DNA of 63,924 nt, filler included, from Craspedostauros australis (Eukaryota), in assembly GCA_030167865.1 (NCBI GenBank). It is 9 parts of 9 records of this genome, joined end to end, with 100 filler letters (N's around TTAATTAATTAA, not from the genome) between each part and the next. Parts side by side here need not be neighbours in the genome. Positions count along the whole stretch, not along the records: positions 1 to 25,665 come from JALAGF010002122.1; 8 more parts are not named here. One strand, given 5' to 3'. The notes beneath the pieces were generated by a model. That model ran no database searches. It was not told where the DNA came from and saw only the letters and a list, made by a program, of their open reading frames with translations. A program made the position numbers and the translations under genes. Positions 1 to 61,105 of the stretch are shown here, one piece after another (position 1 is the first letter of the stretch; each line of letters begins with the position of its first letter).

Positions 1-625
1 CACTTTCACACCCAGGAGATGCTTCACCTCAAGTGACCAGAGTTGAATCACGTCCTGAGAGTGTTGTATCTCTGGTGACCATGCAACTTCCCCAATTTTC
101 AACTTTCTGCACCCTTTCTCCGCAAACTGCCTGATCTGGTTCGTTTGTTCCAGGAGCTTGTTGAACTGGAGGCGCTTCTCTCATGGCATGGTCCATCCTT
201 GGGCCTTTGTTGATGCCAACAATTCCTCCACGCGTCTGTGTATGTTGTGTTGCTGTATTCTTCGAAAAGAGCGTTGTTGTAGCGTTGTACAACCCGCACG
301 ACACTGAGCACCAGTCTATTGGGCATGATGGATCGAACTGGCTTTATTCTCATCCCCAGGATCTGTGCGAAGCTCATGTCCGTCCATACTGCTCTATGGT
401 CCGATGGAATTGGAGCCCCAAATGCCAGATAGCCTGCTTTCTCCATCTTCCCCCTTCCGTAACATAGATTGTGTTGATGGGCACGTTGCTCCTGTTCTGT
501 TGTTGTGTGGCTTGTCGGGATTCCTCTCCTATTCTGTCTTCCACCGCGTTCTTCATTCCAATCTTGACCAGTTGCTTGGATATGTTTCTGTCCAGCATGT
601 CATTGTTAAGGTCCACTTGGATCAT

Positions 626-831
626 TATTAAAGCACTATCGAAAAATCACAAGGGGTGAGCAAAAGCAAAGTACCATGCTGGGATTCGAACCCGGAACCT
701 CAGTGAGAATTACTGGTGCTCTACCGTTGAGCTACAGGCGATGCGATTGCTGAACCGAACACAAGTGAAATTTATAGATAGTGGGGGCTACGGGAGTAAC
801 GTACTTAGCACTATTCGATTTTGTGCTGATA
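626..831. mobile_element. 206-bp insertion with 5-bp TSD (ATCAT) inside the LINE endonuclease
   Basis: ATCAT at 621-625 and 832-836. Removing the insert and one copy restores the minus-strand frame N-T-I-M-I-Q-V-D-L-N-N-D. Ends TATTA.../...TGATA are imperfectly inverted. Confidence 0.85.
671..741 (-). pseudogene. tRNA-like sequence (pseudo-tRNA with Pol III A and B boxes)
   Basis: Minus strand TCGCCTG-TA-GCTC-AACGGTA-GAGC-A-CCAGT-AATTCTC-ACTGA-GGTT-CCGGG-TTCGAAT-CCCAG-CATGGTA-C followed by TTTGCTTTT. D stem is perfect and the B box is GGTTCGAATCC. The acceptor stem is mismatched and U33 is absent. Confidence 0.8.
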
Positions 832-3800
832 ATCATGATGGTGTTTCCTTCCACATTCCATCTGTGTAGTTCCTCCAGCAAGTCTCTGGTCCATGCTTCA
901 TGCGGATCTTCCTCTCTTCCTTCGGCATCCAGGACCATTGATTGCCGTGCCCACACAGTACTGTGTCCTTTGGTGGATTGTCATGGCCTTTAGGCAGAAA
1001 CTGCTTGCAGTAGTATGCTTCCTTTGCCCTCCAATAGAGTCCAACACCATCTCCCCATCCTGCTCTAGTCAAATCCACTTTGGAATGTGCGAGCCGCCAA
1101 CTGCGCACTCACCACAATTCCTGCGCCACCGTAAACTCTCTGGTCCTGCTTTGCTTCATGCGCGTTGTACGAGAAAATGTGCTTGGACCTGGAGATCCGA
1201 CGTCTTCCTTGCTCCAACCATTGGTCCGTGGGTCACACATGGCCCCATCTTGTGTTGGTCTCAGCCATGAATAGCATGTCAAGGCCGCTCATCCTGATGA
1301 AGTCGAAGATCTCTTTGTTTTTCTGTTGGTACGAGTGTATGGGTATCTGGGATGCGTTCTGGAAGACGATGCGTATCGTCGCACCAGTCTTGTTGATCAT
1401 CGCATCCCCGCAAGCATCGTTCAGCCTACTTGCTTCTGTGTGAACAGTCATGTCTGTCATTGTGCCGTCCCTAGTACACTGTGGTATTGTCCAGTGTATC
1501 TGCCCTGTGGCCAATATTCGTTGTTGTCTTGCTCCACTTATGTTAGTGGTACTGGCTTCTTTCCTCGTTCTCTGTTGCTTTGTTTTGGTGAGAAAGTATT
1601 GGCGATCACTGTCATGATCCTTGAGTTGTGTTGGTGTGTTTCTGTATTGTTGTGTTGTTGGTTCTTATTGCCCTTGCGTTTTGTTTGCTTCTGCTCCTCT
1701 TTTTCTTTTTACTCCTGTTTTGTGGCTTCTTAGCCTTCAGGTATGATTGGATCTGTGTCCATGGGGTCTTCCATCTTGTTGTCTCCTTGACTGCCCTCGT
1801 CCTCGTCCTCATTGTTGCTGTCGGTCTTGCTTGAGCTGTCCCTGCTGTCCTTGTCTTCTCCCAACTTCTGGGCCTTCATCTGGTCACTCTTGTCAGTCTC
1901 ATGCTTGTCTTCCTCCAGGATGCTGCTACTTGGGTTGTCCGGGTCGAAGTCTGTTTTGGCTGCCGGGTCTGCTGCGAATGGCTGTGGCCTGGCTGACTTG
2001 TGTTTCGCAGTGTTTCCGATTGCGGCCCCAATATGGAAGTCTGCTGGGCCACTGATGCTGTTGTGAAAGTTGCTACCATTCCGTTTTTCCCGTTCTGTGT
2101 TCTTGGGTTGGATGTCATTTCAACCTCAAATTCCAGAAGCAGCACCAGTTTCATGTTGTCTTGTTCATCCATGTAGCCTTCCCATCCAACATCCTCCGCG
2201 GATAGCTCAATCATCTCCTCTTCGTCGAGATTGAGAAAGTGAGCACCCCTCTTGCGCGAGTTGCCCCATCTCCAACTCCTCCTTGCTTCTGACCAACCTG
2301 ATTTTCTAGTCCACTTCATAGTATTTGTTTTGGGACCATGCCTCTGGAGTAAACTATCCTTGGCATTTGTGGTCCAGCTTTTTGCTGCAGAAAAATGGTA
2401 GTTTGGAAATCAGTTCCCGCGCTTCCACCTGTCATTTGGGATGGAAGACGAAAAAGGCACGATTGCAGTTGGACTTGTCTGTATCCACTGACATGAACAA
2501 TGTGTAGTCTGGGTCTTCGAAAGACCGAAGATTTATGATGATCTTGCACAGAGTGAGTCTTCATATCAGCACTTCCACATCCAACTGCATGATAGAGTAC
2601 ATGCCCTCTGTCACCATTTTCTTTTCGAATGCAACCTGATGTGCTACCATCGAACTCAAGTTCGCGAGTTCCAAGGGTGGGTGATGGAACTGTTGGTCGA
2701 GAGCATCCGGCATGAACCTCATCTGTTTTCCAAGGAGGAGTACCGTGCCCGCGCGGTTGTTGAACATGTCGTTCATTGCGACATGGTAGGATCTGGGCTT
2801 TGACTCGCTGCACATGATGTGGGTGGCCCTTGGCCAGTTGCAGTAGCTATCCAATTCGGATCGTTGTCCTCTCTTCTTCACCAGTTGAATCTTATGGATG
2901 CGAAGTTGAGCTACACATTGGTTCTTCACAACCTCATGCCCATTGATTACTTCTGCCAAATCCTCCATATTCATGGTGCTGTGGCTGCCAAACATCCAGC
3001 CTGCTGCCACAATGTTGTGTTCCTGCATGTCAGACTTCCTGAAAGCCATCGTGGCGGTTACTAGTGTTCCATCATCCTCAAACGTGTCGAGGTCCTGTTT
3101 GTGGGCAACCCAAATGTGCGTGTAGGTCATGAATCCTGTTCTTGCATAGAGACTCTCTACGAATTGCTTCAGCATCTCACAGCTGGTCCACGCAACGTCT
3201 GCGGCCATCCAGGGCCATAGCTTTTTGCTTTTCTGTCATGCCAGGACTTTCGCCTTGGAGTCAGTGCGGAAAATGAATGCGCGTAACGTGTTCAATCCTG
3301 CGATGACTTGCACCAACAGAGTATCACTGCCCTCCCTTGACATTGGCGGACACACATCAAAGAAGCTCTTGTGAATGTTGCTGAGGACATCATTGATGCT
3401 CACCAGTTCTCAAGCTTGTGGGTTCTTCCTTGGGTACGCCGTTACTTTGTTTTTATTGGCTTGCATGACTTCTTTTTGGATGTGGGGTTTGGAGAGTTGG
3501 CCTGTGGAACTTCTTCATCTTCGTTTTGTCGAGATGGATGCCCTTGACCTCCATGAATACCATCCTTGCTTCAATCCACATGGCTGTCACATGTGTGGAT
3601 AGGATCTGTCCAAATTCCACATCAAAGAGGAGAAGATGTTGGACGTTGCCAACAGTTGCACCATGATTTGCACCATCAGCAGGTTGGATTCTGCAGTTAG
3701 TTTGTTGTTGTACGCATCGCTGAACAGCTGCTTCCACTGTTTGAAGGATGCTCCATCTGCCAGACTGTCCCTCATCTCCTTTACGAAGGCAATGGGCTTG

Positions 3801-13156: not shown

Positions 13157-14956
13157 CTACAGCACCTCAAAGGTGGAATCCTGCGGATTCATCTCACGTA
13201 ACAGGACGGCGACGCTGGTTGGCGGAATGATGCCAACTTCCGTCACGATGCCGCTGACGAATTCCGACGGCGTGACATCGTAGAGCAAATGCAGCAACTT
13301 GAGATTGGGAACGTCCTTCCATCCCTTGAGTTCGTCGATGTTGTTCGTGGACATGTTGGCCAACGAAGATCCGAAGACGGAGGCGGAATTTGTCGTGTCC
13401 TCCTTGTCGGACTCCTTGACGGCGGGTTGCGAGGCGATGTTGGGATTTGGCGAGCGCACCAAGGTATCCGGGTCGCCGAGTTCGTTGAATGTGATGCTCT
13501 CCAGCTGGACCCTGTTGGATATCTTGTACGTTTCGCAGCAAACGAGGACGGGTATGTGATGATCGTTCGCCAGCATGGCAACGGTGGCCATGCCAACGCG
13601 TCCGTAGACAGCGCCGTTGGTCATCAACGCCGACGCACCCAGGAAGACCTTGGTGACGCGGTGCATGACGTACGTCAGGGCGTTGAGGTTGATGTAGCCG
13701 CACCGGATGCCCGTATCTCTGAGCTTGGACAGCAGCTGCTTGCCTTCCCACAAGGGCCTCGCATCCACGATCCACACGAAGAACTCCTTGTCCTCCTTCT
13801 TGGCCATTTCGAGAATGGCCAGGATGGCTTCGGAATGACCAAAGGTGAGGAGGATGTCATTCTGCTCTATCTTCTGCAAGGCATGGTGCGCGATGGCTCT
13901 GTCCGCGAATTCCATGCGCTCATTCATGTACTGCTCGATGCTGTCCTTGAGGATGGCACGCGCTTCCTCGTAGGGCATGTCCCGCGACAAGGCCTGCAGG
14001 GCCGACTTGCAGAAGGTGAAGGCATTGCCCATGCTGACGGAGTGCGGTCGGCAGTGCTGCGTCCAGTATGTGAAGGATGGTTTGAGGACCTCCTGCAGCA
14101 AGTGAATGCGGAAATCAATTCGAGCATCATCGGAAGGTGGCACGTAGTCATCGAGGACCTTGGAGAATACCTCCAGCATGCGCCGGCATCGGGAGTTGCC
14201 GCCACGCACTGTGCCAGCAGCGTACCTCATGCCCAATTCCACAACGGCCGGGTGCAAAGATGACTTGGCCTGGTCGATGGCTTTCGACGATGGTTGTCCT
14301 ATGCATAGTATTGATGCGTTCGTAATCATGCATGCAAGTTGAGTGAGATGAAACGACGGAGAACCTTGAACGTGTTTTAACACAGTGACGTTTATCCAAG
14401 CAGGTGCACACGCACAATGATGACAATACCCAGCCATACAGATAACCAGACGCACACTCAAACGTCATTTAATCCTGCACTCACCTCTGTGCGGTGGCAG
14501 GTGCGAAAATAGTTCGACCCGATTCTCCCTTTCCTTCTTTGCCGCAAGAGCGGCTGCCTTTGACGCTGCTGCAGCTGCGGCTGCTTTGTCATTGCCTTTG
14601 GTCGCTTTGCTGGCCGCATTGTTGGCATTGTTGTTGGTATTGCTGCCCCCCGCATTGTTTCCTTTGTTATTTCCTCCCTGCTTGTTGCCTCCTTGCTTGG
14701 CGGTGCCATCATTGCTGCTGCCGCTCTTCTCAGATCCTGTCGCAGCTGCTTTGGCCGCTCGCTGCTTTTCCTGCAACGCTCTTCGCTCGGCCTTGGTGAG
14801 CTTGGGCTTCTTGGGTGGGATGACGAGGTTGGGCGGCGGCGCCTTCTTCTCCCTCTTCGGCTTGGCCCCGCCTGCGTCTGCCTTTGCAGCACCTGCTGCT
14901 GTTGTCTGTGGCTGCTGTTGCTGGTTGGTAGCCTTGCCTGCTTCTTCTGCTGTCAT
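13157..14956 (-). CDS. EIF2B4: Translation initiation factor eIF2B delta subunit; exons 14956-14485 and 14298-13157
   Basis: AERRALQEKQRAAK, LFSHL, LHPAV, CRPHSVSMGNA, KVFLGA, PVLVCCETYK, NELGDPD, YDVTP..TEVG.IPPTSV. The GTGAGT..ATAG intron joins in frame. Confidence 0.95.
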
Positions 14957-18325: not shown

Positions 18326-19019
18326 GGCCCGCACGGGTAAAATGCTTGGACGTTTGGACGTTCACTTGAAGTGCTCCATGTCCTCGTCCTCCTCCTTCTC
18401 TTCGTCTCGTCTTGTCTCCCTCTTGCTATCTTGTGTGAAGTGTTGCTCCAGCTACGAGCTTCTCTGACGGTATGAATAGTCGTACTTGTAGTCTCTGAGA
18501 GTGTGGTCTGAGAGTGTGGCGGAGTGCAGTGGGTGGTACGGCCATCCGTTCCAGGGCGGCAGTGTGTGGAATGCGAGTACGCGCATTGATCCGTTTCCAA
18601 CACGAGAAATGGGAATGTCGGCATTGTGGGGAAAGACCATTTCGCATGTTTCATTCGGATGAATCGTGTTCTCTTTCGACATGAAACGTTAAAAGACGTT
18701 AAACATGCAGCAGTCCACGGAGTCCTTGCCAAAGCACCAAAACTGCCCGCCGACACACGCTCGCCCAAAATGTGCGTGTGTTGTGCGGTTGCGCGGTTGT
18801 TACCGTGCTTGTGGGGTGTTGCGTGATGAAGATCACCACCACGCAAAACCCAGGTCCATCACATCACACCACACCAACACAAAGCCCAAGTTCATACTCA
18901 TACTCATACGATCTACACATCCATACCAGTCAGTCCTTCCCCAACAACACAGTCACGCAAGTAACCACGCAAAGCATCGAAGACTGTGACATGGAGAAGA
19001 AGCGAGCAAGGAGTCCACG

Positions 19020-22000
19020 ATGCTGATTGATGATGCCTTTGTCGGAGCCTGCGTCTTGTACAATGGAGAAAAGGCAATCATCAAGAAGAAATGCAAGAGA
19101 AAGATCTGGCTTTCCTTTCCTGCAGCCGACAGATCGGATCGATGCGTCTTCCCCAAGAGCTGCACGATGCTGAACGCAGCTGCGACACCAAGCCACGTTG
19201 GGAGTATTCACTGCAGCCACAGCGGTGATGTTTCGAGCATGTCCCATTCCGCCTTCTCATCCTGGTATCGATCTCGACCAAGTTCCATGGGATCAAGGCA
19301 GCGTGCAGCCAGCGCAAATCTTGCTGCCTCATACCAGAAACCGACATCCGTCCGTCTCTCAACTTCGCATCAAGCTGATCAGACAGACCCTGATTGCACG
19401 AATGTCATCAAGGATGTTGAAGCCGACTGTGATGACGTTCGAAGCACAAGTGAGAAGGAGTCTGCCCATAATGCCACCCGTGATGCCACCCTTGGTGCTG
19501 CGCGTAATGCTGCGAGTTATGTGAGCGTCAGCAGCTCAAACAGCGCCGACGACAAGCGCGAAGAAGACGACTTGGTAAAAGAGTTAATCAGCGCCACTCC
19601 CGCAAGCAGACAGCAGGATGACAGCATGTACGAGGTTGTGTCGGTCTCGTACCATCGCAAAACGACACCGCGCAGTCGCAGGCCATACGTGCAGCGTTCT
19701 TTGCCGCGAGCGTTCGGAATCCAAACCGCCTTGGCATCCGAGGCTGCGTCTTCATCCATTGTGTCTGGCTTCACGAGCTGGAAGACTGCGAGGTCCACGG
19801 ATGAGGTCAAATTGGCGCCGGTGCAGCGACAACGGCAACAGTCGCAAGTACAGTTGCTGTCACAGCAATCGTCACGATCTCAATCGCAGTCTCATTCTCA
19901 ATTGCAATCGACCGGAGCTGAAAGCGAGGTTAGCGAAGAGGCGGCAGAAGAACAAGAGAAGGACGACGGCAGCAAGCGTGAAAAGGATGCTGTCATTGTG
20001 AAGCAGCAGCGCCAAGACGAAGCACGCCCATGCTTTACGCCTATTCACGAAGTCCATCCATTACAATGCCATGTGCCACCACTCATCCATCAAGACGCAA
20101 AGCCGGATCCGTCCATAAAGAGCGGGTCACTGCCGGCCCATGTACCTATTAGGCCCACACATGAGGAGGAGGAGGAGGAAGACAAAGCTGTGGTACCGGC
20201 AGTCCCCAAACAAGCTATCAAAAGTGCGAATGGGCCGGCGATGGCATTGTGGGATATCCCCATCCTTCGGATCGATCACATTAACGCGTCCTTCGACCAT
20301 CCCCTCTTCCGACAGCAAGGCACGGGTAAATGCAAGGGTCCCGAGCGGGAGCAAACCATTGCGTATCAGATATTTGGAGAACGCCTTTTCGAAATCCACG
20401 GCGAGCTGCCTTACAGCACAAGTGATCTGCGTCAGGGCACTGCAGCGCCTGCAACTAGCCATGCTGGCACGCACAGCAATGATGAATCATCCAACGAGAC
20501 AATCTTCAAGTACAACGTAGCCAAGAGCGCACACAAGACGAATGGGCAGGATCCGAACATCCCTTCGTTGCCCACCAGGTTCCGTCTGGATGACCGCGTA
20601 TTCGAGCTTCTCTGCACCAAGAACCACAAACGCAAGGGTGGCGGAGGCAAAGGGTTTGCTGGTGCGAACCCAAATGTGCTTGCGGCGTACTACGTCATGA
20701 CGCAAGGTGCCAACAAACCAGCGATAGACCTGCAAGGAGAGCTCTCGAAGTGGTGTGACTTCGCTTCTCTCCCTCTTCTCAAAGTCAGCGCCAGGCTCGA
20801 ACTCTTCTTTACGCCCGCCAACAAGAGCAGCAGGAAAGGCCTTCCCCTGCTCATGTTCAAGACCCTAACTCCAGAATCATTCTCTCCAGATCTGGCACGA
20901 ACAGCAGACACCATCAACACAAAAACAAAGAACAAAACCAACAAGCCAAGGAAGGGCCTCACGCACGTGCTGGATGTGGAACGTGACTTTGAGGACATCC
21001 TGGTGGAGGATTGCCACGAAGGGTGCGGCTTCATCCCACGACGCATGATCGAAATGTTCATGGGATCGAACGCGGTTGGGAAACGCACGCGTTGCCTCCA
21101 GGTCCGCATCGTGCTGCCGAAGTTTGGCTTGTTCAAGGGAATGCTGCAGGAAAAACCAGGCATATCGAAGATTCAACTTCCACCATCCTGCAGAAAAGTT
21201 GGCCCGTCGAAGCGCAGGGACTATCACAAAGCTGGACTACTGTTGGTGAATGGCGCCTTTCCCTCCTCCAAGACTGTGCAGATGGCGAAGATTCTGGGAT
21301 ATCACGACGACCCTGACAATATCAGCATCCCCAAATCATTCGAGACGAAAAAGATCTCACCCATGATGCAGGATCTGTGGAAGGCGAAGGGAGTTCCGGT
21401 CGATGTCATACGGACCTACGATAAGGCACAGAAGAGGGATCCGACGCAGATCCAGCATGCATCCTTGGTGGGAACCGCCGATCCGACGGATGGTGGCATC
21501 CCGGAAGGCTGGGTGTTCATTCCCGGTCTGTACGATTCGCAGAATGCCTGCGTCGAGGTCAATTCCGAGGCAGCACGCAAGAAGGGTAGAATCCCAATCG
21601 ACGGACTCGATGACATGCCGAAACTCTTCGTGTCGCGGTTCCCCTGCATCGGCGTCGAGGACGGTGTGCTGGTACCGGTGCTGCGTGAACGGCCAGTCGA
21701 GGAAACGGGAATGTCACAAAGGGATTGGGAGTTTCTCAATGATCAACCGTTCGGTTCGATCATCTTTGGCAACTCCCGCGATGGCAAGGCTCCGTTGCCT
21801 ACTGTGATCGCGAGCGGTGACTTGGATGGTGATCTATACTTTGTGTGCTGGAACAAATCCATCGTGACTTCCATCATCGACATCCCCGTTCATCTTCCAG
21901 TCGTTGCAGAAGACAATGCTGCCGGTGTTGGTTGTGCTGGTTGTGCTGGTTGTGCTGATGATGCTGATGACGGTGTTGGTAGTGGCGACGGCGATGGTAC

Positions 22001-22670
22001 TGTTGTTGACACCAGCAGCAAAGCCAAGGGTTGCAATCAAGTTGAATCTATCGAAAGTGGTGCAGAGGTGGCATCGCAATGGCCAAAGGACACCTGGTTC
22101 TCGCTTACCCAGCTGTACGCTTCCAATATCTTGCGCGAAATCGAAACGGACTACATCATCAAGGCGCTGTTCGCGGGGCGGACCAAGGTGGCGAGGCTTC
22201 ACGACAACGATCGGACGCACCCGGACGCCATCCAGTTCGGGGTTGCGTTCAAGAGAGCGCTGGACTTGCACAAACACGGTGGCACGGTACCGCTCTCAAA
22301 GCGTCTTTGGCGGTTTCTGTCGCCAGCGTTGCACAAGTACCTTCGAGATGACGGGGGTGCAAGGATGAGCAAGAATGTGGAGGATACCGACGACGGCGGC
22401 GGCGGCGTTCGAATGCGAGGGACGCCGACGGATTGCGAGAAAGAAGCGAACGATGACGACATCGAATGCAGCGGGCCCATGGTTGGGAGCAAAGGAGGGG
22501 GTGTTGATCCCGGTGTTTCCAGCAGCAGTGGTGTCAACAATTCAAAGCCAGACCACGTCCTGCAAAGAGTCAAAAAGGAGGGGAGGAGGAGACGCGCAGC
22601 AGATGCCGAACCGATGGATTCCACAATACCGAAATACATTTCTATCTATCACGATTGTGCTGGGTGGTGA
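19020..22670 (+). CDS. Eukaryotic RNA-dependent RNA polymerase (RDR/QDE-1 family)
   Basis: 1216-aa ORF with EGCGFI, QVRI..G.FKGML, GTADPT, VSRFPC, SGDLDGDLYFVCW (DLDGD at 21819-21833) and ALDLHKHG. The start codon is uncertain. Confidence 0.9.
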   Translation: MLIDDAFVGACVLYNGEKAIIKKKCKRKIWLSFPAADRSDRCVFPKSCTMLNAAATPSHVGSIHCSHSGDVSSMSHSAFSSWYRSRPSSMGSRQRAASANLAASYQKPTSVRLSTSHQADQTDPDCTNVIKDVEADCDDVRSTSEKESAHNATRDATLGAARNAASYVSVSSSNSADDKREEDDLVKELISATPASRQQDDSMYEVVSVSYHRKTTPRSRRPYVQRSLPRAFGIQTALASEAASSSIVSGFTSWKTARSTDEVKLAPVQRQRQQSQVQLLSQQSSRSQSQSHSQLQSTGAESEVSEEAAEEQEKDDGSKREKDAVIVKQQRQDEARPCFTPIHEVHPLQCHVPPLIHQDAKPDPSIKSGSLPAHVPIRPTHEEEEEEDKAVVPAVPKQAIKSANGPAMALWDIPILRIDHINASFDHPLFRQQGTGKCKGPEREQTIAYQIFGERLFEIHGELPYSTSDLRQGTAAPATSHAGTHSNDESSNETIFKYNVAKSAHKTNGQDPNIPSLPTRFRLDDRVFELLCTKNHKRKGGGGKGFAGANPNVLAAYYVMTQGANKPAIDLQGELSKWCDFASLPLLKVSARLELFFTPANKSSRKGLPLLMFKTLTPESFSPDLARTADTINTKTKNKTNKPRKGLTHVLDVERDFEDILVEDCHEGCGFIPRRMIEMFMGSNAVGKRTRCLQVRIVLPKFGLFKGMLQEKPGISKIQLPPSCRKVGPSKRRDYHKAGLLLVNGAFPSSKTVQMAKILGYHDDPDNISIPKSFETKKISPMMQDLWKAKGVPVDVIRTYDKAQKRDPTQIQHASLVGTADPTDGGIPEGWVFIPGLYDSQNACVEVNSEAARKKGRIPIDGLDDMPKLFVSRFPCIGVEDGVLVPVLRERPVEETGMSQRDWEFLNDQPFGSIIFGNSRDGKAPLPTVIASGDLDGDLYFVCWNKSIVTSIIDIPVHLPVVAEDNAAGVGCAGCAGCADDADDGVGSGDGDGTVVDTSSKAKGCNQVESIESGAEVASQWPKDTWFSLTQLYASNILREIETDYIIKALFAGRTKVARLHDNDRTHPDAIQFGVAFKRALDLHKHGGTVPLSKRLWRFLSPALHKYLRDDGGARMSKNVEDTDDGGGGVRMRGTPTDCEKEANDDDIECSGPMVGSKGGGVDPGVSSSSGVNNSKPDHVLQRVKKEGRRRRAADAEPMDSTIPKYISIYHDCAGW

Positions 22671-34961: not shown

Positions 34962-37900
34962 ATGTCTCCAGCTCCAAGCAACAACGCCGGGTTGCCCCGC
35001 GATGGGCAGCTGGACAAATCGCTCAAGACCGTGTCACGCAGCGACGCCATCGACTACTCGGGTGATGATGGCAGCAACAGCAGCAGCAGCAGCAGCAGTG
35101 CCAGGGGTTTCCCAGCCACCTCGAGCACTGGTAACGGAACCACCATGTTCGGTGATCACGAAAGTCATCCTGAATTCAGCACCACCGCCGACAGCAACGA
35201 CGATGAAATGCAGGCCGTTCGCAATGTTGCACGAAAGGATACGTTCCAGGTCCGCTTGTGGCGTCTCGTGACAACAGCAGCATTGCTCGCAACTGGAGTC
35301 ACTGTCACTTGGGCGACATACCACGTGAGTGCAGTTCCGATCTGATGCAGTGAAGGGATGAGCAACAAGGCAAGGGAGGAGATGGCAGTGGGTCTGTCTC
35401 TACCAGCGAAGCATCCTTCACACATCCAATATTGGTTTGACGGCGAGTGTGCGACTATGGTGCTCACATATCAGCGTTGCCCATCCGAACACCCTCCATA
35501 TCTCTACCGCTCTGCTCATATCATCTGCACGGTACGATTTCATCTCACGTCTTGCCTCTCCCTTCTCGAACCATACCACTCGTACGAGCCTGTTGCGATT
35601 GCGATTTTCTTGCCCTGATCTTCCTTGCCTTCGTCCTTCTGCACATTTGGTTGCCTTTCTTGCTTCCGTCACCTCTCAATCAGTTCCTCGATCAACAACA
35701 AACAGACACCTTCGAGACAGCGGTAAGTGTGTCGTATCTGGCGGCAGCAAAAGAGGCCAACACTTGTATCGCAGAATACCTAGCGCACAGCACTGCATCA
35801 TCATAATGATACCGCTCCGTTCAATTGTCCTTCCCACTCGGCTCGGATGGTACTCAGTAGGGCTCTACGATACTCTATTGTGTACGGACACTTGCTCTTA
35901 GCACCCACGAGCTCATGGATCTCCTCCAACCTCTGCCTGGATAGCGCATCTCCTTCGCGTTCTAACACTCGTTCACTCTCCGTCTCTCACTACTCGGCCA
36001 AACACAATCTCCAATGCCCCATACAATTCACACCTCCATACGGCCACGTATCGATACATTCCATACATTCCATACAATCCATACACCAGTTTGAGCAATT
36101 CGCTAGAACTGTTGGAGATGCCGCTGTTGACCAACAGCTCAACCTCCGGCATGCCTACATTGGTCTTGCTAACCACGTGTCGAACTACGTCGTGAGCACA
36201 AACGCAAGTTGGCCGGACGTCACCATCCCGTTCTTCCGAACAACCGCAGAAACGGTCCTGGAGTACTCCGGCACAGAGATTGTGACTCTGCTTCACATGG
36301 TAAAAAACGAAACATACGATGCCTGGGTGGAGCATAGCATCAAGGACCATGGTGCCGTCGTGATGAATGCCAACCTCGAAGAGAATGGCAACCTCGACGA
36401 CTTCACCCCGGCAAACTTTCATCCCTACGTGGCCAAGGTCGACCGCTCTGCGGGCGGTTTCGTGCCGGATTACCCTGGACGAGAACGTAAGTACGTGCTC
36501 TGGGAGTATGCGCCGGCACCATTCGATTTCAGCTTCCTCAACTGGAATGTGATGTCCGCAGAATACCTCGGGACTCCCCTGGTGGGGCGCAGTCTGGTTG
36601 AGCTGAGAACTGAAACTCTGTTCCATTTTGCGGGCACATTCAACAGCTTCGCATTTAAGAAGGAAGAGCATGAAGCGATGCACGCCAGATTGCCCGGTTC
36701 CAAGGTCAGCCACCCGCACACCTTCGCCTATCACCCAGTGCACGAGGTCGCTTCGGATCCAGACTCCGAAATCGTCGGTATTTTGATTGGTGTAACAGCA
36801 TGGGACACTGCCTTGAACCAGCTGCTGCCCAATAACGTGCAGGGAATCACAGCCGTGATTTCCAACACCTGCAACCAAACGTTCACATACGAGATTCATG
36901 GAGAGTATGCCTACTTCCAGGGATACGGTAAGTGCGAACATCAAATCGCTGGTGTTTCAGCTGGTGTCTTTACACGTTGAAATCAATCTCTTCGGCCGGC
37001 TTCATTTGCGTATGCTTGATTCGCGTACCTGGTAGCCTGCTTTGCTCACCTCAATGTACTATCTACTTGCATCATGTGCTTGTGCGTACTATATCTGCTC
37101 AACTCCATCCATCCGTCCATTCGAAATGTAATCTCTCCCCATGCATTCATGCCGGTATCTACTCTCTGCTGACGACCTCACTAAATCGACCAAATCGAAC
37201 AAACTACTATTGTACCAGTCGACACACATGATACGAAGTACGACAAATACGAGAAGGTGCGCCTGCTCACAACGTCCGATCATCCGGACTTCGCCAAGAC
37301 GCCCGGGCATTGCATCTACACGATGCATATCTACCCATCCAGGCAATTCGAGGAGGCGTACGACACCTTCCTCCCCGAAATATTCGCGATCGTCATCTTC
37401 TGCGCATTCGTCGCGGTGATTGCGATCTTCTTCGTCTACGACATGTTTGTCAACCACCGCAACGAGAAGCTCATCGAGAATGCCGCGCGCTCCAATGTCA
37501 TCGTGTCAACGCTCTTCCCCAGTGCTATTCGAGACCGGCTCATTTCCGACAAGAATACGCACGGCGACACAGCGAACATACGCATCTCCAACCTCAAGAG
37601 CTTCTTGCATGGAGAGGCGGATGCAAACGCAGGAGCGGGGCAGCCGTTGGCCGACCTGTTCCTCGAGACGACGGTCCTATTTGCTGATATTTCCGGCTTT
37701 ACTGCGTGGAGTTCAGTTCGAGGTGAGTGTGGCAGCACATGGGAACAACAACCGTGACGAAGGGATTGTGGTCATTTTGTATGCAACACTTCAACTGAGG
37801 CGATCTATCCTTTCACTAACCTTCGCATTCATTCCATCATCATCATCACCACCATCGTCATCACCACCATCGTCATCATCATCATGCCCGTACACACAAA

Positions 37901-40093
37901 ATCAACATCAAACTTCAACTACAAAAGAGCCGACGCAAGTCTTCTCATTGCTCGAAACCGTTTTCTCTCAGTTTGATCAAATCGCCAAAGCCAGGCGAGT
38001 GTTCAAGGTTGAGACTGTTGGGGACTGTTACGTGGCCGCCACCGGTATTCCGGAACCAAAGAAGGATCACGCCACCATCATGGTCCGTTTCGCACATGAT
38101 ATCCTCAAGCGGATGGATGTCCTTGTGAAGGGGTTGGAAATCACGCACGGTCCGGACACAGCCGATCTCTCCCTGCGCATCGGCATGCACTCAGGACCGG
38201 TCACGGCCGGAGTGCTGCGCGGGGAACGTGCACGATTTCAGCTGTTTGGCGACACCATGAACACCGCATCTCGCATCGAAAACACCGGCGAGATTGGCCG
38301 CATCCATGTATCGAGAGAAACGGCGGAATGCGTGCGTCGGTGCGGCAAAGGATACTGGCTGGTGAAACGAGAGGAGAAGGTATACGCCAAAGGCAAGGGC
38401 GATATGCAAACGTGAGTTCGTGCGCTACTACTGTGACTGCCTTGAGTTCGCTCGAGAACTTTGAGGGTGCAGCAGATTACCAGCAACGCACTGTCATATT
38501 CTATCGCACATCGTATATGCTTCTGATACTGATCCTGATACTGAAATTCGCACGTTCATTTCGCCTCCCCATCGCGGGAGACTCTCGCACCCCTTTCCAA
38601 TCTCACCCATTCATCTATCTATCCATCAATCCATCCATCCATCGACACATGCTAAAATTTCACACTGTGCATCGGGATCATCTCTTCTCTCAATCACACT
38701 CTCGCTACATACGTATATCTCTCAGATACTGGATTGCTCGCTCCCTTTCGCGTCCCAAAAACGGTTCCGTGACTGGTAGCTGCAGCAGTGACATGGATGA
38801 TGCCCACGATTCATTGGACAATGCAGAAGACCTTTCCTTGCTCGGCATCCAGCAACGAGTTAAATCCAGCGGCCTGGATGAAAAACAGCTGCGGCTGGTG
38901 GATTGGAATGTGGTGATGCTCACCCAGATCCTGCAACAAGTCGTCGCTCACAGACAAGCAGTCGGCCCCCAAGCACCTGCCATTTCAAGAAAGAAGGCGG
39001 ACGAAGGCTCGCAGATTCAGCCGGCTATATTCATTCCGCTGGATGAAGTCTGCGAGATCGTCCATCTTCCAGAATTCAATCAGAAGGCCGCCCACGGCTC
39101 GGCATCGGCCAAGGGTGCCGCTCCAGCCATCGACCAGAGAGTTGTCGACCAGCTGCGATCCTTCGTGGAGGCCATTGCGGCCATGTACCAGGACAATCCC
39201 TTTCACAACTTCGAGCACGCATCGCACGTGACCATGTCCGTCATCAAGCTGCTTGCCCGCATCGTCGCCCCGTCCGATCTCGACTTCGCCGACAAAGGCA
39301 ACGCAGCAGTCCCTGTTAGCAGCGGCAACAGCATCGCCAGTGGTAAAAGCAGCGCCATCAGCGGCAACATGAGCGCAAAGCACGTGGCTGCATCGCTGCA
39401 CGACCACACCTACGGCATCACGTCGGATCCGCTGACGCAGTTCGCATGCGCATTCTCCGCCATGATTCATGACGTCGATCATCCAGGCGTCCCGAATGCC
39501 CAACTGATCAAGGAAAAGACGCGCGTTGCGGCCATCTACGACAACCGATCCGTTGCCGAACAGAACTCTTTGGTCCTGGCTTGGGATTTGTTCACATCCG
39601 ACCAGTACGCCGACTTCCGCAACTGCCTTTGCGGCAACGAACAAGATCTGCAGCGCTTCCGACAGCTCGTTGTCAACGGAGTCATGGCGACAGACATCGT
39701 GGACAAGGATCTGAAGCAGCTGAGGAACGGCCGCTGGGACAAGGCCTTCTCGGACAACACTTTCGACGAATCCACCAAGGACGCCACCGACCGCAAGGCG
39801 ACCATCGTCATCGAGCACTTGATTCAAGCCTCGGACGTTGCTCACACAATGCAGCACTGGCACGTGTACCGCAAGTGGAACGAGCGCTTCTTCAAGGAAT
39901 GCTACGCGGCCTACCGCAGCGGCAGATCTGAAACGAACCCGGCCGACGGCTGGTACAAAGGAGAGATGGGCTTCTTCGACTTCTACATCATCCCGTTGGC
40001 GAAGAAGCTGAAGGAATGCGGCGTGTTCGGCAAGTCCAGCGATGAATACTTGAACTACGCCATCGCCAACCGCGAGGAATGGGAACGCAGGGG
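34962..40093 (+). CDS. Receptor-type class III nucleotidyl cyclase-phosphodiesterase fusion (GC/PDE); exons 34962-35324, 35684-35722, 36090-36927, 37219-37722, 37928-38411, 38726-gap
   Basis: TM-extracellular-TM, then cyclase VLFADISGFT, KVETVGDCY, LRIGMHSGPV, RFQLFGDTMNTASR, then PDEase FHNFEHA, HDVDHPG, MATD, SDVAH. All five GT-AG introns join in frame. Confidence 0.93.
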
Positions 40094-55120: not shown

Positions 55121-55507
55121 GGACCACGACTGAACGACGAAAACACNNNNNNNNNNNNNNNNNNNNNNNNNNNNNNNNNNNNNNNNNNNNTTAATTAATT
55201 AANNNNNNNNNNNNNNNNNNNNNNNNNNNNNNNNNNNNNNNNNNNNCTCCTCGGAGACCGTTCATAATTTCATAATCTCTCTGAGGAGTCGTGGTAGTCC
55301 AAAATTCGTTCTCAACGGCTACATCGGAGCGAAACTTCGTCCTCACACTAGATTAATCCAATGTGCTCTACTGCAAATTGATTATTCGTTCCCACCCGTT
55401 GCATCGCGACTCTCTGTTGCAGTTCAACTCCTTCTTTGGATGCACCTAGTGTAACTGTGCATTCGTCATTTGATGAACTCCAGTAGATCATATCTTCCCC
55501 CACCATC

Positions 55508-56692
55508 ATGACTTCCACCCTCCAGTATCATCGCCGGCGCCAGGCTGCCTTGATTGCTGTCATCCTTGTCATTCTTGAGCATCTTGCTGCACAGCAGCGC
55601 CTCCTCATGTGTGCTGTGGCACACTACATCATCGACACCATGCCAACAAGTGTGCGAAGGGGTCGGTACCTCAGCTCCAGCATCTTCCGTCATCAAGCAG
55701 TATCGTTCTGGTCCTTGATTCGACAGTATGGTGACTCCATGGAGTTCTACAACTTCATTGGACTCACCAGGCCATCGTTCGATCGATTGGCTGAAGTGCT
55801 CAAGCCCGTCATCGAAGCGTTGCCCGTCGATCCGCGAGCTACAGCATCACCACGACCATCAGATATTCGCCGTCGTAAGTTTGACTACATCGATATCACC
55901 GCCATTGCAATGAAGTATCTGACTTCCAAGTCAGAATTGAAGAACCTATCACCGCAATTTGGGTGCATTGTTAGTGTGTTCCATCACTATCTCCAACTAA
56001 GCATCGACTCCGTGATCCAAACCTTGCTCGTCCATGACCTTGCGAGGGTGTTCTGGGATCGCAGTCCCAGAGGCATGGAGGAGATGAGACAACTCAGTGA
56101 GCCATTCCGTGGCGCTCCAGGAGTAGTTGCTGTGATTGACGGCCTGAAGCTCACCAGTGCTGCTCCATCTCATCCCATGGAACAAAACAGGGATTGGAAT
56201 GGGTGGACACGCGATGTCAACCGCAACCTTGTGTTGGTGTGGGACCTGAAGGGCCGCGTAGTTGACTGCGCAGTCAACACTCCTGGCAGCTTCCATGACT
56301 CCACTTCGTGCGTGTGGGGAAACATCTACGAGCACATCCTGGCCCTCCCAACCAACGCCAGCGTCGCAGCCGATGCCGCGTTCAGCACTGCCAAGAAGCT
56401 CAAGGGGAAAGTCATCAAGGCAAAGAAGTCCAAGCACCAGTACTCTCCGTACAACTCCACCCTTACACACTTGCGCCAGTGCTCTGAGTGGGGGAATCAC
56501 ACGTTGACGGCCACTTTCCGTCGTTTGCTTGTCCCTCTTCCTACTGATAACATTCGGCGCGGGAGAATCATGTGGTCAGCCATCCTCCTCCACAACTGGA
56601 AGACAGAGACATGCAATCGCAACCAAATCCGTACGTACATGGCAGATGTCGCAGCAACGGTGAATGAAGGCAAGGCCGAATCGAACAACTAA
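55508..56692 (+). CDS. Harbinger-type DDE transposase (DDE_Tnp_4/HARBI1-like)
   Basis: AVIDG, PGSFHDS, AADAAF, RQCSEWG..F, LLHNW; uninterrupted 394 aa. Confidence 0.9.
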   Translation: MTSTLQYHRRRQAALIAVILVILEHLAAQQRLLMCAVAHYIIDTMPTSVRRGRYLSSSIFRHQAVSFWSLIRQYGDSMEFYNFIGLTRPSFDRLAEVLKPVIEALPVDPRATASPRPSDIRRRKFDYIDITAIAMKYLTSKSELKNLSPQFGCIVSVFHHYLQLSIDSVIQTLLVHDLARVFWDRSPRGMEEMRQLSEPFRGAPGVVAVIDGLKLTSAAPSHPMEQNRDWNGWTRDVNRNLVLVWDLKGRVVDCAVNTPGSFHDSTSCVWGNIYEHILALPTNASVAADAAFSTAKKLKGKVIKAKKSKHQYSPYNSTLTHLRQCSEWGNHTLTATFRRLLVPLPTDNIRRGRIMWSAILLHNWKTETCNRNQIRTYMADVAATVNEGKAESNN

Positions 56693-58127: not shown

Positions 58128-58980
58128 GGTAGAGTCTAAGGTTGACTGAAATGGAAGAGCACTCTTGTCAATAGTGGACTGTGGATGGTAATTGTAAACC
58201 GAGATACGAAGTGATGGCTCTTGAGAAGAAAGTAATAGAAGATGTGGAATGCATCAACGATGCCAAGAAGCGAAGAAGATGCGAGTGGGAAGCTGCCATT
58301 GCCATTTGTATCATCAAAGCAAAGACAAGGAGACGATTGGCAAGCCAGTGATTGCACTGAGCGCTGCAACGGTTGGGATAGGTACGTTGAGCGTTCAATG
58401 AATGAAGGAGTGGACACCAGCAGCACAGGAGATGGAGAAAGGAAGACCAAGAGAAGCAGAAAAGCGATGAGGCAAACAAAATAGTATGGAGATGAACTGC
58501 GGATGGCGCGGAGCAACACATACGTACATACATACATATATTCATCTGGTATATGGCAGTTGAAAACTGCACTTAGGAAAGACACATGTATTTGTGAATG
58601 TGTGACGCAGCAAGAGATGCGCGAAGCTGAAGCTGTCAATGTGTCAAAATACCACCCCATTCAGCGAGGTCGAGTAAAATCCTTCCGATTCTGAATCGGA
58701 CCACATGACTTTTTTTTTTGCAACGTTGCGTGTTGTCCATTTGGGTTTGATATATTTAGATAGCTCATACGACACTAATACATGGCTTGTCCTCACCGTG
58801 GACGGAAATGATGGCGTCGTTGCTGGTCGACATCAGACTGTGATGGTATCCAACAGTGTGGGTAGTGATGTTGTGACAGCTTCGGTGTCGCGTTCATTCT
58901 TCAAGCTGGCTCTGTTGTGTGCTTCCTCCCTTGTGCGTGTTGTGTCAAGTAGCACCGCGTTGTTTGTGGCATGCCAACAC

Positions 58981-59383
58981 ATCCACGGCATCATCCATGG
59001 CAACATCCACAGCATCATCCACAGCATCATCCACAGCAACATCCACAGCATCATCCACGGCATCATCCACGACAACATCCACAGCATCATCCACGGCATC
59101 ATCCACGGCAACATCCACAGCATCATCCACGGCATCATCCACCGCATCATCCACAGCATCATCCACAGCATCATCCACGGCATCATCCACAGTAACATCT
59201 ACAGCATCATCCACAGCATCATCCACAGCATCATCCACGGCATCATCCACGGCATCATCCACGGCATCATCCACAGCAACATCCACAGCATCATCCACAG
59301 CATCATCCACGGCATCATCCACAGCATCATCCACGGCATCATCCACAGCATCATCCACAGCATCATCCACGGCATCATCCACG
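58981..59383. repeat. 12-bp minisatellite (ATCCACRGCATC)n, at least 33 units, running into a gap
   Basis: Direct inspection; variants AGC/GGC and ATC/AAC. Confidence 0.95.
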
Positions 59384-59483
59384 NNNNNNNNNNNNNNNNN
59401 NNNNNNNNNNNNNNNNNNNNNNNNNNNTTAATTAATTAANNNNNNNNNNNNNNNNNNNNNNNNNNNNNNNNNNNNNNNNNNNN

Positions 59484-61105
59484 TCACCTTTGCACTCATC
59501 ACTGCATACAACACATCATACAATGAGGAGTTTGTCAGCCACATCCAGCGCTGCAGTGACTGCGGTACTCCAGACTACATCAGTCTCACGAATACTGCTG
59601 AGACCAAGTACCAGAGCGTGGTCAATGCCAGCACATGGAACCGCCTTTCTTGCGACAAGCAGCTCCTTGCTCTCTGAGCCAAGACGAAGCAGCTCAAAGC
59701 GTCAATCACCAAATCATCCAGCAAGCAAGCAAACAACAAGAAGGACAACAAAGGGACAGCTTGCCACAAGGTGGCAACCACCCTCTTGCCAATCAAGATC
59801 CGCCAAAGGGCAACAACCCCAGGCACTTTGTCCACCAGGGAACCACCTTCCACTGGTGTGACAACCACAAGGCATGGGACAAGCACAAGACATCCAACTG
59901 TCGCGCCCGACCTGGCAAGAACGCTGACTCCTCTGGGAAGAAGCGCCAGCACGACAAGAAATCGCCCTCGTCCAAATCCGTCAAGGTCCATGCCAAGTCA
60001 GCTCCTCACGTCCACTTCGACGACAGCGATGGCCACTATGACAGTAGCCAGCATTCCACTCCCAGCGATGGAAACGCCAGTGAGAACTGACATGAAGGCA
60101 CGCCCATCCGATCAATGTTATCAGTCACAGCACTGCAAGGCATCTCCGCGATGCAGACGACATTGCATCAGATGGGTGATGTTCCAATCGGAATTGACAC
60201 CTGCACGTCGGCCACAGTCTCTGGACAACGTGGTGACTTCAGCAACGATCTTCAGCCAGTCCACGGCATGGCCATACAAGGAGTTGGAGGGTCCATCCCC
60301 ATTCAATCCAAGGGCACANNNNNNNNNNNNNNNNNNNNNNNNNNNNNNNNNNNNNNNNNNNNNNNNNNNNNNNNNNNNNNNNNNNNNNNNNNNNNNNNNN
60401 NNNNNNNNNNNNNNNNNNNNCAATGGTCAGACCAAGGTCCCCGCGATCATCACGGCAGGCACTTGCGTACCTGCACAACCTACGGCAACCACACAGTCCT
60501 GCGCTCCTCGCGTCACAAGGTCACTGTCTACCATCATCCTGGCACCAACCTGCCTCTGATGTCCGTCATCCACGCCAAGCGACATGCGCCAGCATTCCTC
60601 GCTACCTCCAGTCCTTCAAGCAATCCTGAATTTTTTAACATCACCGACGTCCCCGACGGCATGATGGAGGTTCATGAAGACCCCAAGCTTGCCGAGTTGA
60701 GGCCCGATCCTCTCCAAGACAACGACACACTGGTCCGCGATCAGTCGGCAACACATCCTGTTGGTGCATCCGATGCACAGGGACAGCTACTCCGGTGGCA
60801 CCATCGCTTGGGGCACCTTCCCTTCCGTGTCTTGCGCAACATGGCATCACACGGAATCATACCACGGCACTTGGCCAAGGCCGAGTTCCCTCTCTGCTCT
60901 GGGTGCATCTATGGCAAGGCCGTCCGCCAGCGCAAGCCAAATTGCATCACGCGCGTCGTCAAGCGAGCGCGATTCCCAGGGCACATCGTATCGGTCGATC
61001 AGATCGTCTCTCGCCAGCCTGGGGTGCTTCCGCAGCAAAAGGGCACGCACACCTGGTCGTGATACACATGCGTGACAGTGTTTGTTGATCAGTACCTTGG
61101 TATTG
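59484..61105 (+). mobile_element. Degenerate Ty1/Copia (CoDi-like) LTR retrotransposon: gag, protease and start of integrase
   Basis: Gag WCDNHKAWDKHKTSNC, protease IGIDTCTS, WHHRLGHLPF..CSGCIYGK, integrase VSVDQ..TVFVD..YVHL. TGA stops at 59675, 60088 and 61060. Confidence 0.88.

Follow-up and report, generated by a model that had tools for sequence, protein, structure and literature searches.

What kind of mobile element carries a tRNA-like promoter for RNA polymerase III (Pol III) in its middle rather than at its head? The question is raised by a 206-bp insert, with termini TA...TA, at positions 626–831 of a 63,924-nucleotide stretch of DNA from Craspedostauros australis (NCBI GenBank assembly GCA_030167865.1). 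This whole stretch is the window analysed here, and all positions refer to it. We think it probable that the insert, whose sense is the minus strand, is a solo long terminal repeat (LTR) that stems from a small LTR retroelement resembling Helenus (TRIMp3), a group of miniature terminal-repeat retrotransposons (TRIMs).

Insertion into the endonuclease of a dead LINE

The insert is bounded by two copies of ATCAT, at 621–625 and 832–836, and the outer bases beside these copies are unlike, CTTGG on the left and GATGG on the right. The locus therefore reads CTTGG, ATCAT, the insert running from TATTAAAGCAC at 626 to GTGCTGATA at 831, ATCAT, and GATGG. Identical 5-bp flanks were found for 31 of 20 000 random 206-bp segments of the window. 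Excision of 626–836, that is, of the insert with one copy of the duplication, gives a continuous 131-residue frame on the minus strand, which contains WNVEGNTIMIQVDLNND and joins a piece ending in WNVEGNTIM at 834 to a piece starting with IQVDLNND at 622. Excision of 626–831 alone leaves the host frame out of register. The two boundaries were confirmed independently by contigs of a public sequencing run, X1 (described below), which leave the insert exactly at 626 and at 831. The insertion, its 5-bp duplication and its exact ends, all of which had been proposed in the initial annotation of this DNA, are established.

The host, as judged from the homologues of its predicted protein, is the endonuclease domain (APE) of a decayed long interspersed nuclear element (LINE). 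Its upstream part lies on the minus strand at 837–1409, with four in-frame stops, and the same endonuclease frame resumes past the insertion site at 374–620, as seen from the alignments and from the joining of the frames. The query for homologues (P0001) was 834–1409 of the minus strand, read through with the four stops written as X. It had no match in Pfam, in a PDB sequence search, or in a word-index homologue search; the full HMMER scan alone succeeded, returning 1208 proteins at E ≤ 1e-3, of which 351 reached E ≤ 1e-10. When seven long matches were scanned with Pfam, three of them (P0005, P0047, and P0055) had Exo_endo_phos and RVT_1, one had only a weak zf-RVT, and three had nothing relevant; a Pfam search with six host open reading frame (ORF) fragments also gave nothing relevant. 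We call the host a LINE endonuclease because homologues of P0001 carry Exo_endo_phos together with RVT_1.

On P0002, the alignment of P0001 stops at residue 398, and that of the downstream fragment picks up at residue 399. In alignment A1, seven of eight LINE endonuclease homologues are gap-free across the insertion junction, and the eighth, P0004, ends there. At the level of these predicted proteins, the seven relatives do not contain the segment, a point on which the initial annotation had made its reading depend, and their contiguity across the junction is equivalent to an empty site. No sibling LINE was found in the window. The LINE copy itself is long dead. Its frame (374–1664, minus strand) is broken by four stops (TGA, TAG, TAA, and TGA) and, near 440, by at least one frameshift, past which an SDHRAVW motif carries on in a different frame.

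The first and last 20 bases of the insert, 626–645 (left arm) and 812–831 (right arm), form an imperfect terminal inverted repeat, with matches at 14 of 20 positions in an ungapped comparison. Ends that match as well were found in 7 of 5000 random segments at n = 20, and the same test at other lengths gave 111 of 5000 at n = 12, 45 at n = 16, and 23 at n = 24. There is also a direct repeat, since AGCACTATCGA at 632–642, within the left arm, is matched by AGCACTATTCGA at 807–818. In the tRNA sense, the insert ends with ...GTGCTTTAATA, without an A-rich or simple-repeat tail. Both the imperfect inverted ends and the absence of a tail had been described beforehand, and both descriptions are accurate.

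The tRNA-derived unit

The tRNA-derived unit occupies 671–741 on the minus strand. An Rfam search of 400–1100 (701 bases) at E ≤ 10 gave a tRNA match at 736–677, minus strand, which scored 28.9 bits (threshold 29; E = 7e-4) and covered model positions 6–65. No 5S rRNA was matched in 400–1100, and no second tRNA-like half was matched in 742–831, in this search. The A-box-like TAGCTCAACGG (724–734) and the B-box-like GGTTCGAATCC (682–692), both on the minus strand, were found by reading of the sequence. Both boxes are intact, and the D arm and T arm are kept. The usual A-box consensus agrees with the published Helenus motif TRGCY...YGG. By reading, the acceptor stem is poorly paired, the anticodon arm has decayed, and the base at loop position 33 is A.

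The unit does not have the properties of a functional tRNA gene: there is no ARAGORN cloverleaf, the Rfam match covers a partial model, and the RNA fold is no better than that of shuffled sequences (z = +0.32). Two overlapping ARAGORN calls, obtained at ps70 with introns, were judged spurious because the introns are implausible. The unit is thus a promoter-like relic derived from a tRNA, not a tRNA gene.

There are three T runs on the 3′ side of the unit, T3 at 670–668, T4 at 665–662, and T5 at 646–642. On the minus strand, the T4 run (662–665) is a Pol III terminator-like sequence 6 nt past the unit, and the T5 run (642–646) is a second terminator-like site; both were identified by reading. 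A TATAAAT sequence at 770–776 (minus strand) has its first base 35 nt upstream of the inferred 5′ end of the unit at 741, and it may be functional. The tRNA-like cassette on the minus strand with intact A and B boxes and a T run, as first annotated, is therefore borne out by the Rfam match, the boxes, and the T4 and T5 runs.

The head of the unit at 741 lies about 90 nt inside the element, which extends to 831, again in agreement with the annotation. The 90-nt part upstream of the unit (742–831, minus strand) would be U3-like, and it contains a hairpin of AGCAC (807–811) with GTGCT (823–827), seen both in the sequence and in the fold. One X1 contig spans 682–831 with two differences and diverges at 831.

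Copies elsewhere and their junctions

X1 is a public sequencing run with a word share of 0.11; its kind (RNA or DNA) is guessed, and its organism is not established. When the X1 contigs (30,610 records) were placed on positions 1–2000 of the window at 80% likeness, 13 contigs matched, and all of these were confined to 626–831, 11 with 95–99% likeness and 2 with 90–95%. The LINE sequence on either side of the insert had no X1 contig match. Three of the contigs continue past the insert, departing at 626, 632, and 831 into sequence unlike the window. These contigs show that copies with the same two ends are present elsewhere. The initial annotation would have been contradicted by a single copy, or by copies that start at the tRNA head, and the X1 contigs answer both points. 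The X1 copies are near-identical, stand in other contexts, and share both ends, and one contig contains the upstream part 742–831 and ends its likeness at 831.

Other sequence collections gave no copies. An exact-pattern scan of viral contigs for the insert found 0 copies, and a scan of metagenome contigs with a 21-mer running from the B box to the 3′ side also found 0 copies. A 20-mer from 752–771 found four loci in metagenome contigs, all of them chance 23-base matches without further likeness to the insert; two of these four contigs are labelled human-gut metagenome.

Over 604–737, the bins have summed X1 contig depths of about 202 and 177; over 738–871, the values drop to 37 and 15. This fall coincides with the 5′ end of the tRNA-like unit, and we did not use it as evidence, since the depth of contigs is a measure neither of copy number nor of the amount of RNA. 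It could reflect additional copies, or transcripts beginning at the tRNA head, such as those of a related short interspersed nuclear element (SINE) or a Pol III RNA.

The flanks of the three X1 contigs are given here in the orientation of the tRNA-like unit. At flank (a), the plus strand before 626 ends with ...GCTGCGACTGTTAATC, which in the tRNA sense places GATTAACAGTCGCAGC directly after the LTR, at offset 0. The 12-mer GATTAACAGTCG opens this flank, immediately following the 626 end. GCTGCGACTGTTAATC reads as an anticodon arm (stem plus loop) with the anticodon GTT, and flank (a) is its complement; we had taken the flank for the anticodon arm of tRNA-Asn before comparing it with the Helenus supplement. 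In the Helenus consensus file, GATTAACAGTCG is found six times, and the internal parts of Helenus-3_PGr and Helenus-2B_PSt begin with cGATTAACAGTCGaa, so that GATTAACAGTCG follows after one base (PMC10886601 supplement). The lineage with GATTAACAGTCG has been assigned a tRNA-Asn-GTT primer, annealing at the anticodon loop (PMC10886601). The likeness of flank (a) to the Helenus primer-binding site (PBS) probably reflects the conservation of tRNA-Asn, not kinship of the elements.

Flank (b), from the contig that leaves at 632, reads CTTTCA, GAG, and then TGGTAGGATGC (TGGTAGGATGCTG...) in the tRNA sense. If the repeat has the same length, the CA end falls exactly at the equivalent of 626. Three bases past this CA is a site that starts with TGG, and its complement ends with ...CCTACCA. 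The T at position 72 and the A at position 73 of the complement presumably fit an initiator tRNA. Flank (b) looks like an LTR end followed by a PBS of the initiator-tRNA type. Internal parts of other Helenus families, in the portion of the supplement accessible to us, begin with TGGTAGC... (PMC10886601 supplement).

Flank (c) ends with ...GTAGCGTAGGGGAG directly before the LTR at the 831 end, again in the tRNA sense, and contains the purine run AGGGGAG. Helenus internal parts also end in purine runs, such as ...caagggggag, among the consensuses accessible in the supplement (PMC10886601 supplement). Judged by these letters, a PBS-like sequence and a polypurine-tract (PPT)-like sequence do stand at the junctions. 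Because of these junctions, we assign the minus strand as the sense of the insert; and because they resemble a PBS and a PPT, copying would have been by the machinery of LTR elements rather than that of LINEs. In the X1 contigs, the likely internal part is longer than 124 nt at one of its sides and longer than 76 nt at the other. Within the window, GATTAACAGTCG with up to two mismatches has 2 matches, compared with 4.4 expected, and TGGTAGGATGC with up to one mismatch has 0 matches.

Candidate elements and their fit

In the Helenus-like reading that we favour, the full element would consist of an LTR, a PBS, an internal part, a PPT, and a second LTR, and it would be transcribed. Reverse transcription would be primed by a 3′-truncated tRNA-Asn annealed just past the 5′ LTR. 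A retroviral-type integrase, which some autonomous element (probably of the Copia type) would provide in trans, would then insert the element, and the 5-bp duplication would be the result of this type of integrase. The target would have been ATCAT in the endonuclease frame of a LINE that was already dead, and recombination between the LTRs would afterwards have left a single LTR between the ATCAT copies. Within this LTR, the U3-like part would be the 90 nt upstream, the R-like part would run from about 741 to a T run, and the U5-like part would be the last 20–35 nt. The tRNA-like unit would lie 90 nt inside because the U3-like part precedes it and a short U5-like part follows it, an arrangement also found in published Helenus LTRs. 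We infer the LTR–LTR recombination, the Copia-type helper, the Pol III activity, and the short, non-coding internal part.

Helenus (TRIMp3) was described by Kojima in 2024 as TRIMs that carry a tRNA-like sequence in their LTRs, the tRNAs being non-functional, and the hosts in Table 1 of that work are fungi, animals, and Selaginella only, with no stramenopile (PMC10886601). The elements are 311–1263 bp in size with no coding capacity, the duplications are 5 bp in fungi and the plant and 4 bp in animals, solo LTRs are common, and the boxes are conserved as TRGCY..YGG for A and a GGTTC core for B; Pol III transcription of Helenus itself is unproven (PMC10886601). The insert shares with Helenus a sense tRNA-derived unit with A and B boxes inside a short LTR, the 5-bp duplication of the fungal and plant members, and, at the X1 junctions, the rust-fungus tRNA-Asn PBS 12-mer and, in a variant, a TGGTAG-type PBS. 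Its length of 206 bp compares with Helenus LTRs of 120 bp (Helenus-1_SMo) to 323 bp. The layout is also common to the insert and the LTR consensuses in the accessible part of the supplement: the tRNA-like unit stands in sense orientation behind an upstream part, and after it come a T4 run and then 8–45 nt to the end. The insert differs in that it is in a diatom and has the termini TA...TA, and no full element with two LTRs was seen here. Compared by eye, its likeness to the published Helenus consensuses is limited to the generic tRNA core and the PBS, and the origin of the diatom element is likely independent of them.

Two other LTR systems are instructive. Cassandra, a plant element with a 5-bp duplication, likewise has the promoter of a small-RNA gene inside the LTRs of a non-autonomous element, as far as the accessible descriptions go, but its unit is derived from 5S rRNA, whereas that of the insert is derived from a tRNA. 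The earlier suggestion of a tRNA analogue of Cassandra in a diatom is supported, with the correction that the design was already published as Helenus/TRIMp3 (PMC10886601). Copia elements of the AtRE1 type, with non-TGCA ends, resemble the insert in their TA...TA ends and short LTRs, but they are from plants and code for proteins, and a tRNA-like unit is not mentioned in the accessible part of the source (10.1101/137141). Our literature search found no diatom report of Helenus/TRIMp3, of a tRNA-derived SINE, or of an LTR with a tRNA-like sequence. The re-annotation of Phaeodactylum tricornutum lists 13 ‘putative SINE’ and 27 ‘putative TRIM/LARD’, with no details given in its accessible part (PMC5859163), and the accessible part of a paper on diatom Copia elements has nothing on PBS type (PMC2806351).

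A number of points weigh against a Helenus-like solo LTR. The Rfam score of the tRNA-like unit is marginally below the threshold, and ARAGORN found no tRNA in the window or in the element, even at 80% thresholds without introns. The termini are TA...TA, not the LTR-canonical TG...CA, although TA..TA ends are known in AtRE1 (10.1101/137141, accessible part), and non-canonical ends also occur among the accessible Helenus consensuses, where LTR-1_PGr ends with ...caata and Helenus-11B_PTrit starts with tatt (PMC10886601 supplement). The flank evidence from X1 amounts to 30 letters each from three contigs of 155, 224, and 226 nt; the likeness to a PBS and a PPT was noticed after the fact, on these three flanks; the PPT-like run has just 7 purines; and the PBS reading is based on likeness to a Helenus 12-mer, not on this diatom's own tRNA-Asn. 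The initial annotation had looked for copies occurring as paired LTRs around a PBS and a PPT. X1 supplies the PBS-like and purine flanks, but no DNA molecule with two LTRs was seen, as no X1 contig spans both. The status of the element as a TRIM, with a short, non-coding internal part, could turn out either way. The T4 and T5 runs stand between the tRNA-like unit and the LTR end, so that most Pol III transcription begun in a 5′ LTR would be expected to end ahead of the PBS. The duplication of 5 bp alone is no signature of diatom Copia elements, since at least one of them, Blackbeard, reportedly has a duplication of four letters (TTCC), according to the accessible part of its description (PMC2806351). 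Finally, the insert occurs only once in the window.

Four rival explanations can be ranked by weight: first an autonomous element's LTR, then a miniature inverted-repeat transposable element (MITE), a SINE, and lastly non-mobile filler. The first takes the insert for the LTR of a retrotransposon of full size that codes for proteins, such as one of the Copia type, and happens to carry a tRNA-derived segment, rather than for that of a miniature non-autonomous element. All of the evidence for an LTR fits this equally well, and the internal part, seen for more than 124 nt and more than 76 nt on its two sides, could be longer. A Copia-type gag_pre-integrase match (E = 3.8e-10) is also present in the window, in an ORF at 60421–61059 on the plus strand that is a piece of a fragmented LTR retrotransposon near the window end. 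However, this ORF has no sequence likeness to the insert, the insert has no similarity to any other part of the window, and sites like GATTAACAGTCG and TGGTAGGATGC are not above chance there. Furthermore, every published element with a tRNA-like LTR is a TRIM, and Kojima argues that autonomous partners require a Pol II promoter (PMC10886601). We consider an autonomous element unlikely.

The initial annotation had offered a solo LTR or a MITE with a captured tRNA promoter as alternatives. The solo LTR is favoured by the X1 copies that share both ends, with a PBS-like sequence after the repeat and a purine tract before it; the MITE did not fare as well. Such an element would be a non-autonomous DNA transposon with imperfect inverted ends, 5-bp duplications, and a tRNA-derived cargo. 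The insert is small, with AT-rich ends, a fixed short duplication, and several copies sharing ends, and its terminal inverted repeat of 14/20 is equalled by just 7 of 5000 random segments. There is a transposase-like ORF in the window as well, of 401 aa at 55487–56689 on the plus strand, with a DDE_Tnp_4 match (Harbinger/HARBI1-type, E = 2.5e-12). Yet Harbinger-type elements make 3-bp duplications, and no transposase family with the inverted ends of the insert was found within the window. Short inverted ends occur in LTRs too, and PBS- and PPT-like junctions at constant positions are not expected of a cut-and-paste element. A MITE is thus quite improbable.

That a LINE copied an ordinary tRNA-derived SINE, alone or joined to other sequence, seems to us very improbable. 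Like the SINE2 group, the insert is short and non-coding and has a tRNA-derived segment with A and B boxes, followed by T runs. A related SINE may coexist with the element, given Kojima's proposal that Helenus originated from a SINE landing in the LTR of a TRIM (PMC10886601), and the X1 contig depth, with the caveat given above, drops where the tRNA-like unit begins. In the insert, however, the tRNA head is 90 nt internal, and the window copy and an X1 contig both carry these 90 nt upstream, to exactly 831. There is no A-rich or simple-repeat tail and no likeness to the host LINE, the junctions are PBS- and PPT-like, and a Pol III transcript would contain neither end of the element. Non-mobile DNA, such as one-off filler or a duplicated tRNA pseudogene locus captured in break repair, would fit the single copy in the window and the two metagenome scans and one viral scan without a copy, but the clean 5-bp duplication and the near-identical X1 copies with the same two ends in other contexts leave it a negligible chance.

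Further readings were considered and set aside. An introner was rejected as there is no GT...AG at the insert ends on either strand. Helitron, tyrosine-recombinase, and Harbinger readings were rejected on the 5-bp duplication.

Wider window and significance

The identity of the host as a diatom is consistent with its coding content. The eIF2B-delta-like ORF at 13160–14464 matches 496 proteins at E ≤ 1e-30; among the 120 matches listed, the rows that name an organism are all diatoms (9 of 9), and the best identity is 63%. The genera and groups among these matches are Cylindrotheca, Nitzschia, Bacillariaceae, Pseudo-nitzschia, and Cyclotella. The window also has a fragment of a monogalactosyldiacylglycerol (MGDG) synthase, fitting a plastid-bearing host. 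An open frame of 1226 aa at 18990–22667 on the plus strand has an RNA-dependent RNA polymerase (RdRP) match, PF05183, and is an RNA-silencing-type gene. At 37420–40093, also on the plus strand, a guanylate/adenylate cyclase ORF overlaps a 3′5′-cyclic nucleotide phosphodiesterase ORF that follows it, and the two may be one fused or frame-split cyclase–phosphodiesterase gene.

A long tandem repeat of a unit of about 15 bases resembling CATCATCCACRGCAT lies in an open frame at 58980–59383 on the plus strand and reaches an N-masked join. Between 25666 and 62780 there are eight pairs of 44-N runs, with the members of each pair 12 bases apart. In the one pair that was read (59384–59483), the sequence between the runs is TTAATTAATTAA, a six-frame stop linker. 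Beyond about 25.6 kb, the window looks like short contigs that were artificially joined, with a long-range order that is not reliable.

What does the insert mean for the biology of these elements? The design itself has been in print since 2024 as Helenus/TRIMp3, and what is new here is most likely a member in a new lineage, the diatoms. As a tentative extension, a Helenus-like family of miniature LTR elements that arose independently and is still live may exist in diatoms, with a tRNA-type Pol III promoter in each LTR and at least two sub-lineages, one primed at the tRNA-Asn anticodon loop and one at the 3′ end of an initiator tRNA. The abundance of such a family might suffice to scatter numerous tRNA-like Pol III/TFIIIC sites, and with them false tRNA predictions, across diatom genomes, and its truncated tRNA-Asn primer might have converged with that of the rust-fungus Helenus.

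If the Helenus-like reading is correct, LTR elements with Pol III promoters (TRIMp3) reach the stramenopiles, a third major branch of eukaryotes, and this would support a repeated origin of the design wherever tRNA-SINEs and TRIMs meet. The LTRs of such elements inflate tRNA and pseudo-tRNA counts, and a diatom repeat library may wrongly list them as SINEs or MITEs. With T runs in its interior, the LTR sharpens a puzzle of all TRIMp3 elements that published Helenus LTRs also pose, namely how a Pol III transcript reaches the PBS. Every copy that inserts would plant a potential TFIIIC/Pol III site in the genome.

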